This document shows, in pieces, positions 17,348 through 41,795 of a stretch of DNA of 64,000 nt. This stretch comes from Waterburya sp. (GTDB lineage: Bacteria > Cyanobacteriota > Cyanobacteriia > Cyanobacteriales > Xenococcaceae). The stretch spans positions 4,640,001 to 4,704,000 of the forward strand of contig CBDCJV010000002.1 of the NCBI GenBank assembly GCA_965217895.1, written 5' to 3'. Made by a program: the position numbers and the translations under genes. The notes under the pieces are model-generated. The model did no database searches and was not told the origin of the DNA. It saw only the letters and a program-made list of their open reading frames with translations. Position 1 is the stretch's first letter. Every line of letters begins with the position of its first letter.

Positions 17348-17542
17348 AAAACTATTAAAGGAAAAACTGTATGTTGATGGTTTGGAAGGCAGTCGAAGAA
17401 AAAGGAACTAGCTACAGTGAAGGTATCTATGCGTTTAGATGCGATCGCTTCTGCTGGCTTGGGAATCTTCCGTAGTAAAATATTAAGTGTCGTCTCTAGC
17501 AACGATGTCCGAGTTAATTGGAAAGAGATAATTTAAGCTAGT
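17348..17542 (+). pseudogene. Eroded duplicate of the S4-domain gene (upstream region joined to a 3' coding part)
   Basis: 17397-17542 reads KKKELATVKVSMRLDAIASAGLGIFRSKILSVVSSNDVRVNWKEII*AS versus KKKEMTTVEASMRLDAIASAGFGISRSKMASAISSNDVRVNWKEITQAS at about 18850-18995; 17363-17393 resembles 18249-18279. Confidence 0.85.
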
Positions 17543-18333: not shown

Positions 18334-19113
18334 ATGCTGCCAAAAGAAGACTTACTAAAGCGCGTCGAAAATAAAGAAGAAATTACTCGCGTTATAGATA
18401 AAGCTGACCAAGCAATAAACAACTGGGAAGTGGTCGTCACAGATTTTTTATCTCCGCCAGTGGTTGCCGAAGTTGAGGCTATTTTGCAAAATCTTACGGA
18501 AATCAAGGCTTTGCCCTGGGGAGGATATGCTCAAGCAGAAAGAAGGCGTATTGCTTTATCTCGCCCAGACATTCCCTTAGATGAATTACAGGTTGAATTA
18601 GCAGCATTAGATATTGCGGGAAATTTTCTATTTGACCCTGCTACCCACCGAGATTTTTTGGGTTCAATATTAGGTACAGGTATTGTCAGGGAAAAAGTAG
18701 GCGATATTCTAGTATTGGGAGAGAGAGGCGCGCAGGCTATCGTTGTCCCAGAAATGGTTGATTTTTTGACAGCTTCTTTGACTCAAGTACGCTCTGTAGC
18801 AGTTAAAACTCAGCAGATAGAATTTAGCGAATTAAAAATTCGTCCACCAAAGAAAAAGGAAATGACTACGGTAGAAGCATCCATGCGTTTAGATGCGATC
18901 GCCTCTGCTGGCTTTGGAATATCTCGTAGTAAAATGGCAAGTGCTATTTCTAGCAATGATGTTAGAGTTAATTGGAAAGAAATAACTCAAGCTAGTCACA
19001 ACGTTAAGGCAGGGGATTTGATTGCAGTCAGGGGGAAAGGAAGATTAGAGGTAGGAGATATTTCAGTTACCAAAAAACAACGCTACCGTGTTAATCTAGT
19101 CCGCTATAAGTAG
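18334..19113 (+). CDS. Photosystem II S4-domain protein (Sll1252/YlmH family)
   Basis: TDFLSPP, WGGYAQAER, HRDFLGSILG, SMRLDAIAS S4 domain, RGKGR. Confidence 0.92.
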   Translation: MLPKEDLLKRVENKEEITRVIDKADQAINNWEVVVTDFLSPPVVAEVEAILQNLTEIKALPWGGYAQAERRRIALSRPDIPLDELQVELAALDIAGNFLFDPATHRDFLGSILGTGIVREKVGDILVLGERGAQAIVVPEMVDFLTASLTQVRSVAVKTQQIEFSELKIRPPKKKEMTTVEASMRLDAIASAGFGISRSKMASAISSNDVRVNWKEITQASHNVKAGDLIAVRGKGRLEVGDISVTKKQRYRVNLVRYK

Positions 19114-21080: not shown

Positions 21081-21180
21081 TGAATCTTTTAACGCTAATC
21101 TACATTGTAAATCAGCAGAGATTGCTACTGCACGTTGCGGGAAGTTGGAAATTATAGTTTATAGCGATCGCAAATTTAAC
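21081..21180 (+). pseudogene. Relic of the 5' end of the downstream Mg-chelatase H paralog
   Basis: ESFNANLHCKSAEIATARCGKLEIIV then a frameshifted SDR, versus ESFNANLYRQAASMATARCAELEVIIFSDR at 22264-22353; both end at a HIP1 site. Confidence 0.8.
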
Positions 21181-22233: not shown

Positions 22234-25200
22234 ATGAAACGGATTGTCTTGATTGCAGGATTTGAATCTTTTAATGCCAACCTCTATCGCCAGGCTGCAT
22301 CGATGGCTACTGCAAGATGCGCGGAATTAGAAGTAATTATCTTTAGCGATCGCGACATCACGACATCTCCTGATAAGGTAGAAACTGCGCTACAAACTGC
22401 CGATGTTTTCTTTGGTAGCTTGCTTTTTGATTACGACCAGGTAATGTGGTTAAGAGAAAGAGTTAAAAACATTCCTATCAGGTTGGTTTTTGAGTCGGCT
22501 TTAGAATTAATGAGTTTGACCCAGTTAGGGAAGTTTGCTATTGGCGATAAACCAAAGGGAATGCCCAAGCCTGTTAAGTTTATCCTCAGTAAGTTTGGCA
22601 ATGGCAAGGAAGAAGATAAGCTTGCTGGCTATATTAGCTTTTTGAAAACAGGACCTAAATTACTAAAATACATTCCTGGGAAAAAAGTACAGGATTTGCG
22701 TAACTGGTTGATTATTTACGGTTACTGGAATGCAGGAGGCACGGAGAATGTTGCTTCGATGTGTTGGACGCTAGCAGAAAAATATCTTGGTTTAACCGTT
22801 GGCGACATTCCTCAACCAGTTGAAACCCCCAACATGGGTTTACTGCATCCTGAATATCAGGGTTATTTTACATCCCCGCAGGATTATTTGAATTGGTACA
22901 ACAACCACGTAGGTGCTTTTCGCGCGACGCGAAGCGAGTCCTTTGGGGAAAAGCCCCTGCCGACAATTGGAATATTGTTGTATCGCAAGCACGTAATTAC
23001 CAAACAACCATACATTCCCCAGTTAATCAAACATTTTGCATCCCAGGGTTTGATTCCCTTACCTATATTCATCAACGGTGTAGAAGGTCATGTAGCGGTT
23101 AGAGACTGGATGACTACTACCTATGAACAAGAACAAAGACAGCAGGGCAATAAAGAAATCCTCTCGCTAAAAGATGATGCAGTAAAAGTCGATGCAATTG
23201 TTTCGACTATTGGCTTTCCCTTAGTGGGAGGGCCCGCAGGTTCTATGGAAGCAGGACGACAGGTAGAAGTTGCTAAACGAATACTTACTGCTAAGAACAT
23301 ACCTTATATAGTTGCTGCACCTTTACTCATTCAAGATATCCATTCCTGGACTCGTCAGGGTATTGGTGGTTTACAGAGTGTAGTTTTGTATTCCCTCCCA
23401 GAATTAGATGGTGCGATCGATACTATCCCTTTAGGTGGTTTAGTAGGAGAAGATATTTATCTTGTGCCTGAAAGACTTCATCGCCTCACTGGTAGAGTTA
23501 AAAAATGGATTGAGTTAAGACACGCACCTACCCCAGAGAGAAAGCTGGCAGTTATTCTCTATAATTTTCCCCCTGGCTATGGCGCAACGGGGACAGCAGC
23601 ATTATTAAATGTACCTAAGAGTTTATTAAACTTTCTTTATGCTTTAAAAGCCCAGGGTTACGATGTAGGAGAATTACCCGAAGATGGAGAAGAAATAATC
23701 AAGCAGGTAAAAGAAGCCGATGAAAAACCTCTTTGCGCCTCTTGCTCGGTCAGCATTCCCTTGCGCCTGACGGCGACGCGGGGTCTGACCGCTTTGCGCG
23801 AGACAAAAGTAAATGTTCGCACCTTAGAAAAATGGTTAGGTTATCTACAAACAAATAGAGTCGAAAAGCAGTGGAAATCTCTTACAGGTACGGGAATAAA
23901 AACCTATGGCGACGAATTTCAGCTTGGAGGTATTCAATTAGGCAATGTTTGGATAGGAGTACAGCCACCATTAGGCATAGCAGGAGATCCTATGCGGTTG
24001 ATGTTTGAAAAAGATTTAACTCCCCATCCCCAATACACGGCTTTTTATAAATGGTTGCAAAACGAATATCAGGCTGATGCGGTAGTTCACTTTGGGATGC
24101 ACGGCACAGTAGAATGGCTTCCTGGTTCACCTTTGGGCAATACGGGTTATTCGTGGTCAGATATTTTGTTAGGTAATATTCCCAATTTATATATCTATGC
24201 AGCCAATAATCCCTCAGAATCAATTTTGGCAAAACGTCGCGGTTATGGCGTTTTAGTTTCTCATAATGTTCCTCCTTATGGCCGCGCTGGTTTATATAAG
24301 GAATTAATTGCCCTGCGGGAATTGATTGGAGAGTATCGAGAAGACACTGAAAAGAATTATGCTTTGAGAGATATTATCTGTCAGAAGATTGTTGATGCTG
24401 GTTTGGAAAAGGATTGCAAGTTTACCGAGGGTTTAAAACAAGGAATTAGTTTTACTGTCGAGAACGGGAAGTTATTTAGCAAAAATGTAATCAATCAATA
24501 TTTTGTTCAGGTATATGAATACTTGCAGGTATTGGAACAGCGTTTGTTTTCTTCTGGGCTGCACGTTTTAGGGGAAAAGCCTAGTAAAGAAGAGTTGAGG
24601 TCGTATTTGGAGGCGTATTTTGACGGAGAGTTGTCGGAGAGTGAGATTGATGGGATTTTCTCGCGCAGAGACGCAAAGACGCAAAGAGTTTTGGAGAATG
24701 ATTCGGTCTTAGTTCACAGGTTAGAAGAGGGGGAGAGAATTAGAGACTTGTTGGTGCAGAATACGGATGAAATAACTAACCTGTTGCGGGGTTTGAACGG
24801 GGAATATATTCCTCCTGCGCCTGGAGGAGATTTATTACGGGACGGTAGCGGTGTGTTACCTACTGGTAGAAATATCCATGCTTTAGATCCTTATCGGATG
24901 CCTTCTCCTGCTGCTTATGAACGAGGAAAAGAGATTGCTAAAAAGATTCTTCAGCAGAATTTAGAGGAAAAAGGTGCTTATCCTGAAACTGTAGCGGTCA
25001 TGTTGTGGGGATTGGATTCAATTAAAACTAAAGGAGAATCTTTAGGTATTTTATTAGAGTTAGTCGGTGCTGAACCTGTTAAGGAGGGTACTGGGAGGAT
25101 TGTCCGCTATGAATTGATCCCTTTAGAAAAATTAGGACATCCTCGCATTGATGTTTTAGCTAACCTGTCGGGTATCTTCCGCGATACTTTTGTCAATATT

Positions 25201-26037
25201 ATTGAATTGCTAGATGATTTATTTCGACGGGCAGCAGAAGCTGAAGAATCGGCAGATAATAACTATATCCGCAAGCATTGTTTGACATTAAAAGCCCAGG
25301 GTGTAGACAACGCTAGTGCCAGAATGTTTTCTAATCCTGCTGGTGATTTTGGTTCTTTAGTTAACGACCAAGTGGTAGATAGTAATTGGGAATCTAGTGA
25401 TGAACTGGCAGATACCTGGAAAAACCGTAATGTGTTTAGTTATGGACGCAAAGACAAAGGACAGGCTAGACCAGAAGTATTATCGCAGTTATTAGAGACA
25501 AACAGTCAAATTATCCAAGAAATCGACTCTGTTGAATACGGCTTAACAGATATCCAGGAGTACTATGGTAACACTGGCGGTTTAAAACTAGCAGCGGAAA
25601 AACAAAGCGGGAAAGAAGTAGAAACCTCATTTGTCGAAAGCTTCTCTAAAGATACCAACCCCCGCAAATTAAAAGATTTACTCCGCATGGAATACCGTAC
25701 CAAATTACTTAATCCTAAATGGGCAGAAGCGATGGCGGATCAAGGTTCTGGTGGTGCGTATGAAATCTCTCAACGCATGACGGCTTTAATCGGTTGGGGT
25801 GGCACAGCCAATTTTAAAGATGATTGGGTATACGACCAAGCAGTTGATACCTATGCTTTAGATGCAGAGATGGCACAAAAGTTACGAGATGCCAACCCTG
25901 AAGCCTTTCGTAATATTGTCGCACGATCGCTTGAAGCTCATGGACGAGGTTTATGGAATGCTGATGAAGAAAAATTGGAGAAACTGAGAGAATTATATGA
26001 GTCTATTGAGGATGAACTAGAAGGTGTAGTAGTGTAA
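22234..26037 (+). CDS. Magnesium chelatase subunit H paralog (BchH/ChlH-like)
   Basis: GFPLVGGPAG, LPELDG, HFGMHG, NNPSE..AKRR, LPTGRNIHALDP, LLNPKW motifs; divergent from the chlH at 32607. Confidence 0.92.
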   Translation: MKRIVLIAGFESFNANLYRQAASMATARCAELEVIIFSDRDITTSPDKVETALQTADVFFGSLLFDYDQVMWLRERVKNIPIRLVFESALELMSLTQLGKFAIGDKPKGMPKPVKFILSKFGNGKEEDKLAGYISFLKTGPKLLKYIPGKKVQDLRNWLIIYGYWNAGGTENVASMCWTLAEKYLGLTVGDIPQPVETPNMGLLHPEYQGYFTSPQDYLNWYNNHVGAFRATRSESFGEKPLPTIGILLYRKHVITKQPYIPQLIKHFASQGLIPLPIFINGVEGHVAVRDWMTTTYEQEQRQQGNKEILSLKDDAVKVDAIVSTIGFPLVGGPAGSMEAGRQVEVAKRILTAKNIPYIVAAPLLIQDIHSWTRQGIGGLQSVVLYSLPELDGAIDTIPLGGLVGEDIYLVPERLHRLTGRVKKWIELRHAPTPERKLAVILYNFPPGYGATGTAALLNVPKSLLNFLYALKAQGYDVGELPEDGEEIIKQVKEADEKPLCASCSVSIPLRLTATRGLTALRETKVNVRTLEKWLGYLQTNRVEKQWKSLTGTGIKTYGDEFQLGGIQLGNVWIGVQPPLGIAGDPMRLMFEKDLTPHPQYTAFYKWLQNEYQADAVVHFGMHGTVEWLPGSPLGNTGYSWSDILLGNIPNLYIYAANNPSESILAKRRGYGVLVSHNVPPYGRAGLYKELIALRELIGEYREDTEKNYALRDIICQKIVDAGLEKDCKFTEGLKQGISFTVENGKLFSKNVINQYFVQVYEYLQVLEQRLFSSGLHVLGEKPSKEELRSYLEAYFDGELSESEIDGIFSRRDAKTQRVLENDSVLVHRLEEGERIRDLLVQNTDEITNLLRGLNGEYIPPAPGGDLLRDGSGVLPTGRNIHALDPYRMPSPAAYERGKEIAKKILQQNLEEKGAYPETVAVMLWGLDSIKTKGESLGILLELVGAEPVKEGTGRIVRYELIPLEKLGHPRIDVLANLSGIFRDTFVNIIELLDDLFRRAAEAEESADNNYIRKHCLTLKAQGVDNASARMFSNPAGDFGSLVNDQVVDSNWESSDELADTWKNRNVFSYGRKDKGQARPEVLSQLLETNSQIIQEIDSVEYGLTDIQEYYGNTGGLKLAAEKQSGKEVETSFVESFSKDTNPRKLKDLLRMEYRTKLLNPKWAEAMADQGSGGAYEISQRMTALIGWGGTANFKDDWVYDQAVDTYALDAEMAQKLRDANPEAFRNIVARSLEAHGRGLWNADEEKLEKLRELYESIEDELEGVVV

Positions 26038-32606: not shown

Positions 32607-35600
32607 ATGTTCACCCAGGTCAAGTCAACCGTTCGTCACGTTAAGCCAGATGCCGTTAACGGACGCGATCTGCTCAGGGTGGTCTATGTCGTGCTAGAGC
32701 CTCAGTATCAAAGCACCCTGACTGAGGCAGCTAAATCGATCAATAGCAATAATCCCCATTTAGCCATTGAACTTAGTGGCTATTTAATCGAAGAGTTGAG
32801 AGACGAAGAAAACTTTAGCAACTTTAAAAAAGATGTTGCCCAAGCCAATATATTTATTGCGTCTTTGATCTTTGTCGAAGATTTAGCACAAAAAGTAGTC
32901 GAGGCAGTAACTCCCCACCGTGATAACTTAGACGCTGCGGTAGTTTTTCCTTCCATGCCAGAAGTGATGCGCCTCAACAAAATGGGCAGCTTTTCGATGG
33001 CGCAGTTAGGACAGTCTAAAAGTGCGATCGCTCAATTTATGCGTAAGCGCAAAGAGAAGTCTGGCAGTTCTTTCCAGGATGCAATGCTCAAGCTATTGCG
33101 AACTCTGCCTAAAGTCTTAAAATATCTGCCTGTAGAAAAGGCGCAGGATGCCCGTAATTTTATGCTGAGTTTTCAGTATTGGTTGGGGGGTAATGCCGAT
33201 AACTTAGAGAACTTCTTATTAATGCTATCGGATAAATATGTTTATCCAGATAGACCAGGGAGTCAAAAGCAATACGCCGAACCCATTACCTATCCAGACA
33301 TGGGTATCTGGCATCCTCTCGCACCCAAGATGTTTGAGGATATTCAAGAATACATAGACTGGTTTAACAGTCGTACAGATATTGCTGACGATCTCAAAGA
33401 TCCTTTAGCACCCTGTGTTGGTCTAGTCTTGCAGCGTACTCATTTAGCTACCCAAGACCATGCTCACTATGTGGCAATGGTGCAGGAACTAGAATGTATG
33501 GGTGCAAGAGTTATTCCCGTCTTTGCTGGGGGATTGGACTTTTCTAAACCCGTCGATGCTTACTTCTGGCAAGAGGGTCAACAGCAGGCAATAGTTGATG
33601 TAGTAGTTTCCTTAACAGGTTTTGCTTTAGTTGGTGGCCCAGCCAGACAAGATCATCCCAAAGCGATCGAGTCACTAAAACGCCTTAACCGTCCCTACAT
33701 GGTGGCGTTACCTCTGGTATTCCAAACTACAGAGGAATGGGAAGAGAGCGAATTGGGTTTACATCCTGTCCAGGTAGCACTACAAATTGCTATTCCCGAA
33801 TTAGATGGGGCAATTGAGCCGATTATTGCCTCTGGTAGAGATGGGGCAACAGGTAAATCTATTGCCCTCCAAGATCGAGTAGAAGCGATCGCTCGTCGGG
33901 CGATGAAATGGGGTAGTTTACGTAAGAAACCCAAGCTAGATAAGAAAGTAGCAATTACCGTTTTTAGTTTTCCTCCCGATAAAGGTAACGTGGGTACAGC
34001 AGCTTACCTCAATGTCTTTGGCTCAATCTACGAGGCAATGAAAGGTTTAAGAGATAACGGCTATGATATTCAAGACCTGCCAGATTCTCCTGAAGAATTA
34101 ATGCAGGCAGTAATCCATGATGCTCAGGCGCAGTATGCTTCTCCTGAACTTAATGTTGCCCATCGGATGTCCGTAGAACAGTATGAACGTCTGACTCCCT
34201 ACTCCGTGAAGCTAGAAGAAAACTGGGGGTCACCACCAGGACACCTTAACACTGATGGCAAAAACCTGCTGATCTACGGGAAAGAATTTGGCAACGTCTT
34301 TATCGGCGTACAGCCTACCTTTGGCTACGAAGGCGATCCCATGCGCTTATTGTTTTCTCGCTCTGCTTCTCCTCATCATGGTTTTGCAGCCTACTATACT
34401 TACCTAGAGCATATCTGGAAAGCCGATGCGGTGCTGCACTTTGGTACTCATGGCTCACTAGAATTTATGCCAGGGAAACAAATGGGTATGTCTGGAGACT
34501 GCTATCCCGATAGCTTAATTGGGAGTATTCCCAACATCTATTATTACGCTGCCAATAACCCTTCTGAGGCAACTATTGCTAAACGTCGTAGTTACGCAGC
34601 AACTATTTCTTACCTCACTCCTCCCGCCGAAAATGCAGGACTGTATAAAGGCTTAAAAGAACTGGGTGATTTAATTGGTTCGTATCAAAGCCTTAAAGAT
34701 GGCGGACGAGGTGTTCAAATCGTCGATACGGTTATGGATCAGGCGCGGATTTGTAATTTAGATAAAGATATTGCTTTTCCCGACCACTCGGCAAAAGAGA
34801 TGACTCAAGAAGAGAGAGATACGATAATTGGTTTGGTTTACAAGCAGCTAATGGAAATCGAGTCTCGTTTACTCCCCTGTGGCTTACATATTATTGGTAA
34901 ACCGCCGACTGCCGAAGAAGCGATCGCCACGTTAGTCAGTATCTCTAATCTAGACCGCGAAGAAGAAGGAATTATTTCTTTTCCTCGCCTCATTGCTAAC
35001 AGCATCGGTAGAGACATTGATGAGATCTACATCAACAACGACCGCGGTATCTTAACAGACGTTCAACTATTTCAAGATATTACCCAAGCAACTCGTGCTG
35101 CGGTTGGTGCCTTGGTTCACGCTCAAATTGATGCTGATGGCAGAGTATCAATGGTGTCTAAGCTAAATTTCTTTAACATTGGTAAAAAAGCACCTTGGTT
35201 AGAAGCATTAAGCGAACATGGTTACAAAAACCTGGATATTGATGCTCTCAAACCTTTGGTTGAATATCTAGAGTTCTGCTTAGAACAAATATGTGCCGAT
35301 AACGAACTAGGTGGCTTACTTCAAGCTTTAGAAGGAGAGTATGTACTACCTGGCCCTGGCGGCGATCCGATCCGTAATCCCAACGTTTTACCAACAGGTA
35401 AAAACATTCACGCTTTAGATCCTCAGTCTATTCCTACATTGGCAGCAGTTCAATCAGCCAAAATTGTCGTAGATAGATTAATCGAGCGTCAAAGACTTGA
35501 TAACGGTGGTAACTATCCCGAAAGCATTGCCTGTGTCCTCTGGGGAACAGACAACATTAAAACCTATGGTGAGTCTTTGGCACAAATCATGTGGATGGTA

Positions 35601-36584
35601 GGTGTACGTCCTGTACCTGATGCTTTAGGTCGAGTTAATAAGCTAGAGTTAATTTCTTTAGAAGAATTAGGTCGTCCCCGTATTGATGTAGTAGTTAATT
35701 GTTCTGGTGTATTCCGTGACCTGTTTATCAACCAAATGAATTTACTCGATCGCGGTGTCAAAATGGCAGCAGAAGCCGATGAACCTCTTGCCATGAACTT
35801 TGTGCGTAAACACGCCTTAGAACAAGCTGAAGAAATGGGCATCAACATCCGCCAAGCAGCAACCCGTATCTTCTCTAATGCTTCTGGTTCATACTCTTCT
35901 AACATCAACTTGGCAGTCGAAAACAGCAGTTGGGAAGAAGAAAAAGAATTACAGGATATGTATTTAAACCGTAAATCCTTTGCCTTTAATTCTGATAATC
36001 CTGGGGTAATGGATGAAAGTCGCGGCTTGTTTGAATCTTCCTTAAAAAGAGCCGATGTAACTTTCCAAAACTTAGACTCATCAGAGATTAGTCTGACCGA
36101 TGTATCTCATTACTTTGATTCCGATCCGACTAAGATCGTCTCCAGTTTAAGAGATGACGGCAAAAAACCTACGGCATATATTGCAGATACTACTACCGCC
36201 AATGCTCAAGTTCGTACCCTATCAGAAACTGTGCGTTTAGATGCTCGTACTAAAATGCTTAACCCCAAATGGTATGAAGGAATGCTTAGTAACGGTTACG
36301 AAGGTGTGCGGGAACTTTCCAAGCGTTTAGTTAACACAATGGGTTGGTCGGCTACAGCCGATGCAGTGGATAACTGGGTTTATGAAGATGTCAATACTAC
36401 CTTTATTGACGATCCCCAGATGTGCAAACGTCTTATGGATATGAACCCTAATTCCTTCCGCAAGATTGTCGGTACTTTGTTGGAAGTTAACGGTCGCGGT
36501 TATTGGGAAACCAATGAAGAAAACCTCGACAGACTGCGAGAACTGTATCAAGAAGTGGAAGACAGAATTGAAGGAATTGATTAA
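32607..36584 (+). CDS. chlH: Magnesium chelatase subunit H
   Basis: [65 protein letters not shown]. Confidence 0.97.
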
Positions 36585-36622
36585 TAGTTAATTCAATTTA
36601 AGCAATTGAATTTTGTAAATAG

Positions 36623-36652
36623 ATAGGGAGGTGCTTTTATTGCCTCCCTATT
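36623..36652 (+). terminator. Hairpin downstream of chlH
   Basis: atagggaggt-gcttttatt-gcctccctat inverted repeat. Confidence 0.6.
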
Positions 36653-36687
36653 GCTATATTTGGCTAATATTAAAATATGTAGAATTG

Positions 36688-37278
36688 ATGAAGGATAATT
36701 TTTGGGGCATAATTTGGTCGAGTTTTTTGGAAGTTCAAGGTGCGTTAATCACGTTTATTGGGATTTTTGTATCCATTGGATTGGCTCGTTTTCCAGTAAA
36801 ATCTCAAGTATCTTTAGACATACTCATAATCATAGTTTTGATTTTGTTGCTTATGATAGTAACTGCCGTTAATGCTTGCAACAGATTGTTTGTAGAGTAT
36901 AGAAAATTAAACCACAAACTAGAAACAGTCGAGCGAGAAAACGAGCAACTTAATAAAATCTCTCAAAAGCGTTTGATTCCAGAAATTTTATCAGCGCGTG
37001 ATTATCAAATCAACAATATCTCAGGAATATTTTGTCTGCTAGAAAAGTCAGAACTTTTCTCTCACAATATTTATGTATCTTGTTACTATACAGACAATGA
37101 TGATTTTGAAATAATAATTGGCGTTGGAAGCGTTATTAATATTCAGACAGATGGGAAAATACAAGTATTGATAGATGAATTTGTTAATAATTATGAGGAT
37201 ATTTTAAAAAAATTAGCCAATAACGATAATAAAATTGTTTCCAGAATTTTAATTAAACCCACCATGATTAAAAGTTAA
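36688..37278 (+). CDS. Hypothetical membrane protein (2 TM, coiled coil, beta-rich domain)
   Basis: Likely ATG at 36688, since the upstream GTG lies within the hairpin; AT-rich. Confidence 0.7.
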   Translation: MKDNFWGIIWSSFLEVQGALITFIGIFVSIGLARFPVKSQVSLDILIIIVLILLLMIVTAVNACNRLFVEYRKLNHKLETVERENEQLNKISQKRLIPEILSARDYQINNISGIFCLLEKSELFSHNIYVSCYYTDNDDFEIIIGVGSVINIQTDGKIQVLIDEFVNNYEDILKKLANNDNKIVSRILIKPTMIKS

Positions 37279-37312
37279 TTATCAATAAATATTTGAAAAT
37301 GTATTAAAAATC

Positions 37313-37708
37313 ATGAAAAGTTCAACAGATAGCCCAAAATTAGAACAAAAAGTTTTTCCTGCCCAAGTAGTTAAAATCATTAGTAATACTAGATTAGCTA
37401 TAAATCGCGGTTCAGAACATAAAATACGTCCCAATCAAAAAGTATTAGTTTATTGTTTAAGTGATGAAGAAATAAAAGACCCCGAAACAGGGAAATCTTT
37501 GGGCTATTTAGAAATATATAAGGGAACAGGCAAAATAATTCATATTCAGGAAAAAATGTCTATCATCGAATCTGATAGATCTCAGACTAAAACTACTAAA
37601 AATACACCATCATTAGCATTTTTAGGCAGAGGAGACGAAGTTTACCATGATTCTTATTTATTAGATTTTGAAGATCCAGAGATAGGAGACATGGTAAAAC
37701 CAATTTAG
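37313..37708 (+). CDS. Hypothetical beta-barrel protein (FlgT C-terminal-like motif)
   Basis: AINRGSEHKI...VY...IKDPETGKSLG pattern. Confidence 0.65.
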   Translation: MKSSTDSPKLEQKVFPAQVVKIISNTRLAINRGSEHKIRPNQKVLVYCLSDEEIKDPETGKSLGYLEIYKGTGKIIHIQEKMSIIESDRSQTKTTKNTPSLAFLGRGDEVYHDSYLLDFEDPEIGDMVKPI

Positions 37709-37720
37709 AAAATTTGCAAG

Positions 37721-38014
37721 ATGAGGCAACAGCGGAGTGGAATAAGCTGCTTGAAAAGCAGCATTTCATCCGCTCAAAATAAACAAACCGAACGCCAACC
37801 ATTAGAATATTATCTCTCTTTAAAATACCCTATTTCGATTTACCCAGAAGAGGTCGGTTATATAGTAATGATTCCCGATCTTCCTGGATGTATAACACAA
37901 GGAGAAACTTTAGAAGAATGTATCGTTAATATTGAAGAAGCAAGAGAAATTTGGATTGAAACCGTTTATAAGAGTGTCAAAAAAGATATTCCCCTGCCAT
38001 CAAAAAGAATTTAG
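37721..38014 (+). CDS. hicB: HicB-family antitoxin (no hicA seen)
   Basis: LEYYLSLKYP, IPDLPGCITQGETLEE, IEEAREIWIE, DIPLP. Confidence 0.88.
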   Translation: MRQQRSGISCLKSSISSAQNKQTERQPLEYYLSLKYPISIYPEEVGYIVMIPDLPGCITQGETLEECIVNIEEAREIWIETVYKSVKKDIPLPSKRI

Positions 38015-38066
38015 ATCGCTTCGTAAATTATATCAAGAAGTGAAAAATAAGATTAAAAATATTGAT
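38011..38066 (+). repeat. Degenerate copy of the chlH 3' end
   Basis: LDRFVN/ttagatcgcttcgtaaattatatcaagaagtgaaaaataagattaaaaatattgat; main frame RKLYQEVKNKIKNID versus [15 protein letters not shown]. Confidence 0.75.
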
Positions 38067-38125
38067 CATGAGTAAAATTGAAGAAGCGAGAAAACTTTTC
38101 TGATTTAATTTAGTAACTTTAATAT

Positions 38126-38806
38126 TTAAGTAATTATTCTAAATGTCAAATTAATTCTTTCCGTCAATACTTTAGAAGTTTTTGGTACTTGATGTTTCCA
38201 AAAATGTTGTGTCGCTCCTTTCATGAACAGTAGACTACCGTGCGTCAAAGCAACTTCGACTGTATCTAAATCTTTATTTGATTTATGTTTTAACTGAAAA
38301 CGTCTTGTTTCACCAAAACTTACTGAAGCAATAATTGGATTTCGATCTAACTCCGGCTCATCGTCACTATGCCATGAAACGTAATCTTTTCCATTACGAT
38401 ATAAGTTTAATAAAACACTGTTGAAGTTTAGCTCTACTACTTTTTCAACTTTTTCTTTGATTGAAAGTAGTGTCGGTGTCCAGGTATCGGGATTCATGTT
38501 AATACCTGAATATTTATAGGATTTACCTTGATCTCCGTACCAAGCAGTCAATCTGGGTAACTTAACTTCTTTACCAAACATTTTTATTTTATCTTGTCGC
38601 CAATTTATACTATCTAGTAACTCGTCGAATAGTTGGTCGCTTTCTAATTCGTCAAAAAAATTTCGATAAATAATCACTTCTCCATCAGGCATAGATTCAC
38701 CTGATGGCAAAGTTATAATTTCAGGATATTTTTGATTATTAGTTCTTTCTACACCAAATAAGTCAAGACTAAATTGTTTCGCCATATCATCCTGAGTAAC
38801 AATCAA
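38126..38806 (-). CDS. AlkB-family 2OG-Fe(II) dioxygenase (ALKBH2/3-like)
   Basis: PRLTAWYG, NLYRNGKD, WHSDDE (HxD), WKHQVPK, RINLTFR. Confidence 0.92.
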   Translation of the reverse strand: MIVTQDDMAKQFSLDLFGVERTNNQKYPEIITLPSGESMPDGEVIIYRNFFDELESDQLFDELLDSINWRQDKIKMFGKEVKLPRLTAWYGDQGKSYKYSGINMNPDTWTPTLLSIKEKVEKVVELNFNSVLLNLYRNGKDYVSWHSDDEPELDRNPIIASVSFGETRRFQLKHKSNKDLDTVEVALTHGSLLFMKGATQHFWKHQVPKTSKVLTERINLTFRIIT

Positions 38807-38823
38807 TAAATTTAAGACATGAA

Positions 38824-39672
38824 CTATGTAGCATATGTCTTGAAAATTTTATGATATCTGGGTATCGAACGATTTTCATATTTACTGACTTTCATCATCC
38901 AAATATTTTTGCCTGTAATGTCTTCATCTTTAATAGATATATCTGATAAGTTGACCAAGTTCGACAACTTATTGTAAAAATCATCAATTCTACCTATACT
39001 TTCTGAATTTTTGGGATTAATACAGACAAAGTAATTATCTCCTTTTTGAGTCTTTTTAATTAGTGAGGTTAAATTCTGTAGATTTATTTTTTCTATGTCA
39101 AGAACATTGGAAAATATATGTAATTTCAAATTTTCAAATTCAGAATCAACATCGTTTTCTTCTAGTTTGTCAAGAGTTTTATATATTTCTTTGATCTTTA
39201 TCTGATCTAATTCTTCAGGAGACAAAGCCTGGTTAATATATTCAACTCCTCTTTTAAGTGCAATCTGAGAAGGTTCAATTAGTGTAAGTTTTTTAAAAGG
39301 TAAATTTATTTGTTTTGAGCGACAATAGCTTATTAATGAACAAGTATCAGTGGCAGCACCACAGCCATAACTAAAAATTTCTAGCTGTTGATCGCGAAAT
39401 CTTGGCATATCTAGCGCATCAAATGCTTCCACCAGTTTATAGTAATGGTGTGCGCCATAGAAAGCGATATAAATATCTACTTCCTCATCAGATTCTAGAA
39501 TTTTTCTACCCTTTTGAATTGCATTCTGAGCATCTTGCCAACTTCTGTAATTTATATTGTTACGATAGCTTTCTAAGCAAACTTCATATACATTTTTAAT
39601 ATAATCGAAGTTAGGCTTGACTCGACTTACTCTTGAAAGTTGACTTACCATCCTTATTTTTCCTTTTGACAT
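38824..39672 (-). CDS. Hypothetical protein with class I SAM-methyltransferase-like motifs
   Basis: EIFSYGCGAA (motif I-like), LIEPS (motif II-like), FSNVLD; 17 bp upstream of the alkB-like gene. Confidence 0.6.
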   Translation of the reverse strand: MSKGKIRMVSQLSRVSRVKPNFDYIKNVYEVCLESYRNNINYRSWQDAQNAIQKGRKILESDEEVDIYIAFYGAHHYYKLVEAFDALDMPRFRDQQLEIFSYGCGAATDTCSLISYCRSKQINLPFKKLTLIEPSQIALKRGVEYINQALSPEELDQIKIKEIYKTLDKLEENDVDSEFENLKLHIFSNVLDIEKINLQNLTSLIKKTQKGDNYFVCINPKNSESIGRIDDFYNKLSNLVNLSDISIKDEDITGKNIWMMKVSKYENRSIPRYHKIFKTYAT

Positions 39673-39784
39673 TTACTGGTTTCAATCCAATGTGTCTTAA
39701 AGAAAATTAAGTAACAGTGATCTCGTTACTGCTAGTTTTAATAAAAAGTGCGATCGCAATTTCTATTTCTCGCCCTCTACTCAA

Positions 39785-40156
39785 ATGATTGAAGTTACTG
39801 TTGCAGATTTAATCTTTCCACTAAATATTGCTGATGAAAGTTGTGTGTTGATATTGTGGGACGAAGTAAATCGTCGGTTACTGCAAATTTTTATCGGAAT
39901 TCCGAGAGAAGCGATCGCTCAAATTCTTACAGATACTTCTCAATCCAGACCGATGACTTTTCAATTTATATCAAATATGTTGAAGGCTGCCAATATAAGT
40001 TTAGAGTCCGTTAAAGTAGAATCTCTTCATAAAGATACTTATTACGCCACGGCATTTTTGGGTTGTGACAGTCAAGTTAAAGAAGTAGATGCACGACCAA
40101 GTGATGCGATCGCATTAGCATTATTAATGAATAGTCCGAAGAAAAATCTGTTATAA
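39785..40156 (+). CDS. Bifunctional nuclease (DUF151) family protein, probably C-terminally truncated
   Basis: LQIFIG, RPMT, YYA, VDARPSDAIALAL; ends abruptly where the hicB-like relic begins. Confidence 0.75.
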   Translation: MIEVTVADLIFPLNIADESCVLILWDEVNRRLLQIFIGIPREAIAQILTDTSQSRPMTFQFISNMLKAANISLESVKVESLHKDTYYATAFLGCDSQVKEVDARPSDAIALALLMNSPKKNLL

Positions 40157-40239
40157 ATATTGAGGAAGCAAGGAAACTTTGGATTGAAACAATATACGCC
40201 AGTGGGAAAAAAGATATTCCTTTACCATCAAAGAGAATT
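40138..40239 (+). pseudogene. Second, partial hicB copy (C-terminus)
   Basis: NIEEARKLWIETIYASGKKDIPLPSKRI versus NIEEAREIWIETVYKSVKKDIPLPSKRI at 37928-38011. Confidence 0.85.
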
Positions 40240-40298
40240 GCGATCGCTTACGTGAACTGTATCAAGAAGTGGAAGACAGAATTGAAGGTATTGATTAA
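40240..40298 (+). repeat. Near-perfect direct repeat of the chlH 3' end starting at a HIP1 site
   Basis: 40254-40298 matches 36540-36584 at 44/45 nt; GCGATCGC at 40240-40247. Confidence 0.92.
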
Positions 40299-40571
40299 GC
40301 CATTTCAAAGCCTCGTCTTTACTAATTCGGTGTTGTTCTTACCCACCCTACTACAGGCTCAATTTAAGAGCGATCGCTTACTAAAAAAGTAACGTTTGTT
40401 AACGAAGTTGTTAAGCAGTATTTCAACTTTAGACAAATAAAGCGATCGCCTGAAAATAAGGCAATACAGCATGATAATATCCATTTCAGGATAAATAGGG
40501 TGAAGCTCCTAATTGAGTCACGTTTGTCCTCAGCTTCAAAAAAGATTTTATAGAGATTCAGGAGAAAAACT

Positions 40572-41795
40572 TTGGGATTAAGAGTAGCTGTTGTCGGTTC
40601 GGGACCCGCAGGTTCATCAGCCGCAGAAGTTTTAGCCAAAGCAGGTATTGAAACTTATTTATTTGAACGCAAGCTAGATAACGCCAAACCCTGTGGTGGT
40701 GCAATTCCTCTTTGCATGGTAGATGAGTTTGATTTGCCTCAAAAGATTATCGATCGGCAGGTCAAAAAAATGAAAATGATTTCGCCATCAAATCGGGAAG
40801 TTAATATCGGCTCAACTCTTAAAGACGGTGAATATATCGGTATGTGCCGCCGAGAAGTTTTAGACGGCTTCTTACGTAATCGCGCTGCCGAGTTGGGTGC
40901 AAACCTAATTAACGGTACTGTATATCAGCTAGATATTCCCGATAGTGAGAAAGAACCCTACACGCTTCATTATGCCGATCATTCGACTGGTGCTGTCAAA
41001 GGGGTGATGAAAACCCTCAAGGTAGATTTAGTAATTGGTGCTGATGGTGCTAACTCTAGAATTGCTAAAGCTATAGATGCTGGTGATTACAACTATGCGA
41101 TCGCTTTCCAAGAGCGTATTCGCTTACCAGAAGATAAGATGGCATACTACGAAGATCTAGCCGAAATGTACGTCGGTGACGATGTTTCTACAGATTTTTA
41201 TGCTTGGGTGTTTCCCAAATTCGACCATGTAGCAGTCGGTACAGGAACTATGAAGGTTAATCAAGCCGACATCAAAAAACTACAGGCTGGTATCCGCAAG
41301 CGTGCTGCTAAACGACTAGAAGGTGGCAAAATCATCAAAGTCGAAGCCCACCCCATTCCCGAACATCCTCGCCCTCGTCCTATTCGTGGCAGAGTTGTTT
41401 TAGTCGGCGATGCTTTAGGCACTGTAACTAAGTCTTCTGGTGAAGGTATTTACTTTGCAGCCAAGTCTGGTCGTATGTGCGCCGAGATGATCGTAGAGCG
41501 ATCGCAGAATGGACAAAAAGTTCCCACTGAAAAAGATCTCAAAGACTTTATGAAACTCTGGAACAAAGAATACGGTGCGACTTACCTTGTACTGGATATT
41601 CTGCAACGAGTTTTCTACCGCAGTGATGCCACTCGTGAAGCATTTGTCGAAATGTGCGATGACATCGACGTACAAAAAATGACTTTTGATAGCTATCTCT
41701 ACAAAACTGTCGTTCCTGCTAATCCTTTAACTCAAATGAAGGTAACAGCTAAAACTCTTGGTAGTTTGCTTAGAGGTAATGCTTTAGCACCTTAA
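40572..41795 (+). CDS. chlP: Geranylgeranyl reductase
   Basis: VVGSGPAG, AKPCGGAIPLCM, AHPIPEHPRP, SGEGIYFAAKSGR; TTG start with AGGAG RBS. Confidence 0.96.
   Translation: MGLRVAVVGSGPAGSSAAEVLAKAGIETYLFERKLDNAKPCGGAIPLCMVDEFDLPQKIIDRQVKKMKMISPSNREVNIGSTLKDGEYIGMCRREVLDGFLRNRAAELGANLINGTVYQLDIPDSEKEPYTLHYADHSTGAVKGVMKTLKVDLVIGADGANSRIAKAIDAGDYNYAIAFQERIRLPEDKMAYYEDLAEMYVGDDVSTDFYAWVFPKFDHVAVGTGTMKVNQADIKKLQAGIRKRAAKRLEGGKIIKVEAHPIPEHPRPRPIRGRVVLVGDALGTVTKSSGEGIYFAAKSGRMCAEMIVERSQNGQKVPTEKDLKDFMKLWNKEYGATYLVLDILQRVFYRSDATREAFVEMCDDIDVQKMTFDSYLYKTVVPANPLTQMKVTAKTLGSLLRGNALAP

Follow-up and report, generated by a model that had tools for sequence, protein, structure and literature searches.

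Introduction

Homology-facilitated illegitimate recombination (HFIR) has been described for Acinetobacter, Streptococcus and Pseudomonas as an integrase-free insertion of about 1 kb of foreign DNA, with one homologous anchor and one joint at a microhomology (PMC3240628, PMC2884548), the latter comprising 3–10 bp (PMC3240628). A similar arrangement was found in a stretch of 64,000 nucleotides from the cyanobacterium Waterburya sp. (contig CBDCJV010000002.1, positions 4,640,001–4,704,000; "the window", the numbering of which is used below), where the 3' end of chlH recurs twice downstream as relics behind unrelated small genes. It has in common with HFIR the one-sided anchor, the microhomology joint, the insert size and the lack of an integrase; in HFIR recipient DNA is deleted, whereas here the gene end is duplicated and the joint prefers a genome-wide motif, HIP1 (highly iterated palindrome 1) or its core CGATCG. 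No description of HFIR in cyanobacteria was found in the literature searched.

Related to this are the C-terminal displacement arrays (effector-immunity modules of the type VI secretion system of V. cholerae, and orphans of Rhs and contact-dependent inhibition systems), in which a block enters behind a conserved anchor, the old 3' end is moved downstream and growth proceeds without an integrase; HFIR was suggested as their builder (PMC5361080). The chlH locus shares these traits and differs in its housekeeping anchor with a near-identical replacement end, its cargo of unrelated small genes, the dozens of loci concerned and the tie of the joints to HIP1. The HIP1 octamer has been without a settled function for three decades (PMC13756078). 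In Synechococcus, HIP1 or its core was the strand-joining point in an smtB deletion, in plasmids and in the SDR5 insertion (PMC4390886, PMC13756078), as here, and homologous HIP1 sites increase integration in strain PCC 7002, the benefit being seen with the site in the homologous arm (10.1101/2024.09.10.611283). Those reports concern single deletions, plasmids and two-arm laboratory constructs, whereas a natural chromosomal footprint of gene gain is seen here. A toxin-antitoxin pair of Microcystis lies between two 152-bp direct repeats behind a gene; HIP1 is unmentioned in the accessible text of that report (PMC7935541).

Integrative elements and prophages at the 3' ends of tRNA and other genes, as well as integrons, resemble the locus in their target-restoring duplicated 3' end, tandem accretion and cargo rich in toxin-antitoxin genes. 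Unlike these, it shows no integrase, no conserved crossover core and many unrelated target genes, and its units end in relics and broken genes instead of attC-type repeats (no attC model was applied). The full-text literature, subscription papers and supplements excepted, yielded no report of HIP1 at natural insertion joints, or of gene-end relics, in cyanobacteria. The locus is a well-preserved example; the main result is the genome-wide pattern to which it belongs.

Results and Discussion

Layout of the chlH locus

In the following, G000 denotes the genome of the window itself; other G and L numbers are other genomes and fetched loci, respectively. The features between chlH and chlP are:

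32607–36584, plus strand: chlH, 1325 aa, the homologous anchor; its last 58 bp are 36527–36584
36631–37278, plus strand: ORF215 (open reading frame, ORF, of 215 aa) without family; directly behind chlH also in G002 and G032
37313–37708, plus strand: ORF131 (131 aa) without Pfam match; behind chlH in G014
37727–37778, no strand: dispersed hairpin repeat with many copies genome-wide; overlies the native hicB start
37721–38014, plus strand: orphan hicB antitoxin ORF; hicA is missing, homology to native hicB sets in at about 37773, and the stop codon (TAG) overlaps the joint
38012–38066, plus strand: joint 2 (TAGATCGC at 38012–38019) and decayed chlH relic (middle relic); orthologous to the distal joint of G008
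38126–38806, minus strand: AlkB-like 2OG-Fe(II) oxygenase; directly behind chlH in G047
38824–39672, minus strand: ORF of 282 aa, family-less; accompanies alkB in G007, G008, G011, G022 and G054
39750–39757, no strand: HIP1, close to where the alkB block and the DUF151 fragment meet
39785–40156, plus strand: DUF151/BFN ORF; native part 39785–40139, derived from an ECF-sigma/DUF151 fusion gene and truncated on both sides
40140–40239, plus strand: hicB 3' fragment; 40210–40249 agree with both G008 joints in 39 of 40 positions
40240–40298, plus strand: joint 3, HIP1 GCGATCGC (40240–40247) and chlH relic 40241–40298 (relic 3)
40370–40377, no strand: HIP1; from here on the sequence is homologous to the region upstream of chlP in G023
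40572–41795, plus strand: chlP (geranylgeranyl reductase), a bystander; not a neighbour of chlH in relatives

The names and roles of chlH, chlP and hicA/hicB follow family matches where these are stated and are otherwise those which we take the genes to have.

The relics and their age

Positions 40254–40298 match the end of chlH (36540–36584) in 44 of 45 positions, as the first-pass annotation had recorded; the copy can be extended back to CGATCGC, so that relic 3 begins at 40241 and comprises 58 bp (BLAST E value of 8e-16 against the chlH end). The middle relic, 38022–38066, is about 71% identical. Also correct was the earlier statement that each relic is preceded by the same hicB C-terminus (37912–38021 and 40140–40249, 77% alike), with HIP1 at the last junction and a HIP1-like sequence at the middle one. 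BLAST showed no other copies of the chlH end in the 5.29-Mb genome.

An assembly artefact, which would make the repeats spurious, is refuted. Contigs from two public runs, possibly of the source sample, span 36545–38213 and 38313–40280 with no differences and flat depth and bridge both joints, and a run of another study, with 10 differences over 260 bp, crosses the middle joint as well; the layout is therefore real, and the repeats are single-copy in the reads. Furthermore, the copies are only 71–96% alike and the joints recur in independent assemblies.

Relic 3 and the chlH end of G023, the closest relative, agree in 57 of 58 positions; with the resident end the agreement is 51 of 58. The resident end departs from the closest clade, lacks the CGATCG site and has CGACAGAC at the position where the relic has CGATCGCT. 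In resident chlH, private sites number 13 within the final 178 bp, 10 of these being upstream of the relic boundary, as against 134 within 3978 bp. Since the relic is closer to the relative's gene end than to the resident end, it is likely the old end, shifted downstream by additive insertion; these data fit a donor-derived resident end, with relic 3 as the displaced end of the recipient. The middle relic probably arrived inside the cargo, because it is nearer to chlH, yet more decayed, and common to G008. Behind it, at 38067–38100, a stretch resembling a hicA start is followed by one resembling the middle of hicB, likewise common to G008.

One could think of a single old tandem duplication of the chlH end and hicAB in place, followed by decay and fill-in with other genes. 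The hicA-start and hicB-middle fragments look as they might after local shuffling. This reading would appear very improbable: of the two relics the distal one is the younger, and it is closer to the relative than to the resident gene, and strain-variable cargo and empty sites (see below) contradict it.

The region behind chlH in relatives

The first-pass annotation had suggested comparing the chlH-chlP interval between related genomes. The two genes are separate in 41 genomes, and the chlP upstream region is absent from 50 chlH-downstream loci (some of them short); as chlP never adjoins chlH in the relatives checked, there is no conserved interval. The join at 40370–40377 is separate from the chlH joints and lineage-specific. 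The gene preceding chlP is a different one in each of the four closest relatives (L066–L069), and in G023 the chlP-upstream homology begins at HIP1 behind a transposase-like gene and a hairpin.

The region downstream of chlH, in turn, varies between nearly all genomes, so that the variable cargo which had been predicted is seen and not one identical interval, and it is rich in HicAB, Phd, Uma2, AAA_21, restriction and HTH genes. Each block of the interval natively adjoins chlH in some relative: hicAB in G005, G050, G054 and G031, ORF215 in G002, ORF131 in G014 and alkB in G047; in G032 the second ORF behind chlH matches FlgT_C. The same hicB/relic joint precedes differing downstream neighbours, twice each in G000 and G008, and also in G049 and L187, a marine metagenome contig; G049 and L187 have the minimal form of chlH, hicAB, TAGATCGC and relic. 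An empty site, which had been asked for as a check, was found: the relic of L187 with its downstream region aligns with the chlH end and downstream region of G004 (84% over 362 bp). In G008 the joint of hicB end, HIP1 and relic occurs twice, with two other small genes between, and is followed by the same alkB block. The first 2.7 kb behind chlH of G008 (L036) contain three chlH relics and a twice-repeated unit of about 120 bp with HIP1, which separates two small membrane-protein genes; this is the most array-like case found.

The chlH end was matched in 35 of 39 genomes of the genus. Extra copies were present in three, every one beside chlH, and none elsewhere in G000, so that the suggested islands carrying the 45-bp sequence were not encountered. 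A metagenome scan for the hicB joint gave five stretches, of which one is real (L187) and two are the G008 locus, counted once; the remaining two were rejected as chance matches in GC-rich genes of non-cyanobacteria.

Altogether, repeated use of the chlH 3' end as a landing site, as had been proposed, is supported by the recurring joint with different neighbours, the empty site of G004 and the same-codon relics in unrelated families described below. A designed cassette array is not supported, the cargo being a patchwork of intact and broken genes.

Search for recombinases

A remote integrase was one of the two mechanisms proposed in the first-pass annotation: the chlH end would be the attB site of an integrase encoded elsewhere, hicB an attP arm, and the blocks decayed integrative elements. 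In its favour can be said that a target-restoring 3'-end duplication is typical of integrative elements, that the same hicB arm repeatedly precedes the relic, and that the genome has 10 tyrosine-recombinase matches and one serine-recombinase match. A contig outside the genus, L091 (3329–4461), also has a HIP1-started chlH relic with a terminator facing a full integron integrase (TIGR02249, above cut-off), although chlH itself is not on that contig; several HIP1-like sites are clustered just upstream.

On the other hand, no integrase or transposase family was detected in the window (10 and 38 further ORFs; tblastn with 12 recombinases), as stated before. The same 12 queries had no match in 53 chlH-downstream loci (569 kb); no integrase was found among 81 of 127 listed chlH-downstream ORFs (43 loci), and no recombinase among 32 cargo ORFs of 13 other scars. 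The nearest recombinase match is 167 kb from the locus, a chlH end adjoins none of the genome's recombinases, and no integron integrase of TIGR02249 scores above cut-off in G000. An identical attL/attR crossover core is missing (51 of 58 positions agree; the resident end is without CGATCG), a second genomic copy of the site is lacking, and the units end at chlH relics and broken genes. Moreover, the same scar is seen at about 30 unrelated genes with HIP1 as the sole common sequence. Attachment by a distant integrase is thus improbable; the other alternative, additive recombination assisted by homology and HIP1, is the best reading.

Gene/relic scars in the whole genome

The chromosome (5.2 Mb) is rich in HIP1, with 5798 sites. 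Its self-comparison for direct repeats gave 355 close pairs, which were reduced to 183 by copy-number and length filters and to 36 pairs of gene and non-coding copy (at least 40 bp, at least 75% identity, spacing of 0.1–10 kb); the scan detects duplications only. In 16 of the 36 pairs CGATCG was found no more than 10 bp from the cargo-facing joint, compared to 4 of 36 at the outer ends and a background of 3.4%. With one pair per gene, 9 of 32 working copies had the full octamer at the joint facing the cargo (background 1.6%, binomial P of 1e-9), the chlH pair being scored as negative. For terminal 3' relics the value was 8 of 18 (binomial P of 2e-10), with 1 of 18 at the outer ends (Fisher, 0.018). 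Among joint hexamers, the three of HIP1 rank top. Scars thus begin at HIP1 far above chance, so that HIP1 is likely a joining point for incoming DNA. The supposed special role of chlH as an essential gene could not be sustained, since about 30 other genes of the genome bear the same scar.

A microhomology of CGATCG(C) at the joint is common to L092, G378 (see below) and several scars of G000; at the joints of the genus it consists of a few matching bases between the hicB end and chlH codons. Eight scar loci were sought in the four closest relatives, and clean empty sites were found at three. At C2:127980 the native copy of the cargo in G017 matches through the last base of HIP1, i.e., a HIP1-to-HIP1 join, with HIP1 on both parental molecules; native hicB ends are without it. 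At the L114 locus, G023 and G020 retain just the relic, HIP1-started, without a matching gene upstream.

Toxin-antitoxin pairs are often the cargo of scars; the cargo of 13 other scars includes PemK, BrnT/CopG, DUF433/DUF5615, Phd and GNAT genes. This agrees in part with the earlier notion of stress or defence cargo, although in the window itself hicB is orphaned and DUF151 broken.

Relics in other families

A pattern scan requiring HIP1 led to L091 and to L092, which shows chlH, a cargo of 170 aa, HIP1 and the relic. For a search without the HIP1 requirement, 401 genomes of the class were used and two candidates scored per genome. Two matches were obtained in 16 of them; in 10 the second match was short and weak (at most 41 bp) and four were examined, whereas G373 and G265, with long second copies on other contigs, are outside these four. 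In G378, chlH is followed by two short ORFs and a relic beginning with CTCGATCGA. G082 has the same DNA as L091, with the relic at the same codons, and was counted once. The relics of L092, L091/G082 and G378 start at the same Leu-Asp-Arg codons and their flanks are unrelated; of the five relics found blindly in other families, two begin at this CGATCG site. At the position of the relic start, only 7 of 50 working chlH ends show CGATCG, and 14 of 50 show GATCG.

Proposed mechanism and its alternatives

Gene, cargo and relic in this order, the position of the joint, empty sites, the lack of a nearby recombinase and the excess of HIP1 are observed. The locus is best read as an additive insertion anchored by homology, in a variant that prefers HIP1/CGATCG as joint, and as a pile-up of insertion scars without a dedicated mobile element. 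Homologous recombination in the gene, joining at the HIP1 core and reuse of the relic as a short arm would account for it; both relics are likely earlier 3' ends of chlH. To one-sided recombination of this type with a linear donor, the free end joining at HIP1/CGATCG, we would give about even chances. A linear donor from a related cyanobacterium, carrying chlH and its own downstream genes, would pair with the chromosome through chlH. Strand exchange would stop at the recipient's site with the HIP1 core, 58 bp before the stop codon, and a few matching bases, often a HIP1 of the foreign end itself, would serve to join that end there. The donor chlH end would restore the gene, and the recipient's old end would be displaced downstream as a relic. 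A hicAB block flanked by such a relic could then employ it as a second, short arm; the recurrence of the same hicB/relic joint before different neighbours, and its double occurrence here, would thereby be explained.

Compared to the known systems, chlH and other loci show a one-sided homologous anchor, foreign DNA beyond it and an empty site in relatives, with a short microhomology at the other joint, as expected for HFIR. As in displacement arrays, the old 3' end is behind the new block (relic 3 matches the clade allele); a variable toxin tip and an immunity gene are missing, and the exchanged end is the conserved ChlH C-terminus. As in HIP1-mediated recombination, HIP1/CGATCG is in excess at the joint (9 of 32), the blind replication giving a weak result (2 of 11).

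Several points weigh against the proposed mechanism. The filters of the scar scan were set after a first list of 3'-end copies, which pointed to HIP1 at the cargo-facing boundary, had been viewed. For all pairs, the contrast between cargo-facing and outer ends (9 versus 3 of 32) is not significant (Fisher, 0.11). In the blind replication (400 kb each of G028, G030, G041 and G035; 1.6 Mb) 11 scars were found, with HIP1 in one gene copy (two if either copy is counted) and at no outer end; the expectation was 0.16 per copy and the Poisson P about 0.04, the direction thus being right and the power low. In G028 none was found. In fetched loci (1.18 Mb), CGATCG was at the joint of six of 16 distinct scars and at two outer ends; this set, which includes chlH relics as well as orthologues of G000 loci, was therefore not taken as a replication. 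The relic had the recipient's allele at only two of seven loci other than chlH, two being ambiguous and three reversed. A further internal bin of chlH carries 18 private sites, the longer relics of G060, G403 and G037 (three of the five found blindly) and one short chlH relic of G008 do not begin at HIP1, and the joints of the genus may descend from one event. Finally, dprA is frameshifted in this assembly (split at about G000:C2 1742320); comEC is intact.

Some further adverse points would be explained if HIP1 were secondary, i.e., if longer or arbitrary duplications came first and were later trimmed by HIP1-to-HIP1 deletion, or if near-matches became HIP1 by substitution. At the joint of hicB and relic, the octamer can indeed form after joining, since the native hicB ends (4 of 4 examined) are without HIP1 and the orthologous middle joint reads TAGATCGC in G000 and GCGATCGC in G008. 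No HIP1 is present at the joint of 23 of the 32 scars, and spread by substitution as well as bounding of deletions have been attributed to HIP1 (PMC13756078, PMC4390886). Contrary to this, several relics begin inside the HIP1 of the gene with no full octamer on the relic side (offsets of +2 and +3), which HIP1-HIP1 deletion would not leave, and young, near-identical relics (G378, L092, L187) already begin at the core. A secondary role is deemed rather unlikely.

Duplication instead of deletion is a difference to classical HFIR, in which recipient DNA is deleted (PMC3240628); at chlH no coupled deletion was seen, and 58 bp are duplicated. A circular donor would account for that: recombination between the HIP1-core site in the donor's gene end and a site beyond the cargo would yield a small circle of gene end and cargo, which would enter by a single crossover in the gene end. 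Scar and role of HIP1 would be the same and only the order of steps different. In E. coli conjugation, gene-end duplications arose from re-circularised donors and were about ten times more common than HFIR (PMC3240628), and for smtB an excision between HIP1 sites has been reported (cited in PMC13756078). The native cargo-side HIP1 at C2:127980 and the lack of a clear upstream donor tract at most of the other scar loci are also in favour of a circle. We consider it rather unlikely, and prefer the linear donor, because resident chlH is already unlike its clade at the first bases of the repeat and also upstream thereof, which a single crossover inside the repeat does not produce. Contigs of four runs (X1–X4) showed no joint that skips the cargo, although contigs drop rare forms. 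Small circles are, moreover, poor substrates in natural transformation.

Other features of the window

The interval between chlH and chlP is AT-rich, with a GC content of 0.27–0.36 as compared to 0.41–0.47 in the two genes. Several ORFs were read differently than before. The hicB gene, formerly considered intact, lacks hicA, and its native start is overlaid by the hairpin at 37727–37778. DUF151 was correctly recognised, although it is merely a two-sided fragment; the source gene encodes a 406-aa ECF-sigma/DUF151 protein, and the fragment, cut near HIP1 39750, is joined at 40140 to the hicB fragment. The "methyltransferase-like" ORF of 282 aa has no match in Pfam, NCBIfam or PADLOC; in the PADLOC search of six ORFs the AlkB-like one was the sole match (CARF_2OG domain). 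The alkB-like gene has a 79% copy on the plasmid (G000:C1 75668–76404), where a remnant of the accompanying ORF is present too.

A second scar in the window is a 91-bp copy (21081–21171, 71% identity) of 22263–22353, in the 5' part of a CobN/Mg-chelatase gene (22234–26037). It lies 1.1 kb upstream, both copies terminate exactly at HIP1, and it was excluded from the scar count due to its low identity. A non-coding copy (17396–17542; 147 bp, 82%) of part of an S4-domain gene (18334–19113; source 18850–18996) has a joint without HIP1.

Conclusions

In the laboratory HIP1 aids two-arm transformation; its natural genomic footprint was not found in the literature searched. As scar joints are exact to the base pair and can be counted in any cyanobacterial genome, HIP1 as a joining site for foreign DNA is directly testable. 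Tentatively, and with some doubt, HIP1 with its methylated CGATCG core might be a phylum-wide signal for gene addition by one-sided homology, the scars being its fossil record, with toxin-antitoxin genes spreading free of integrases and relic-flanked blocks such as hicAB re-inserting through their relic. If true, this would suggest a one-arm insertion tool for cyanobacteria, and it would explain by what route toxin-antitoxin genes and other small modules arrive at chromosomal sites that lack an integrase.

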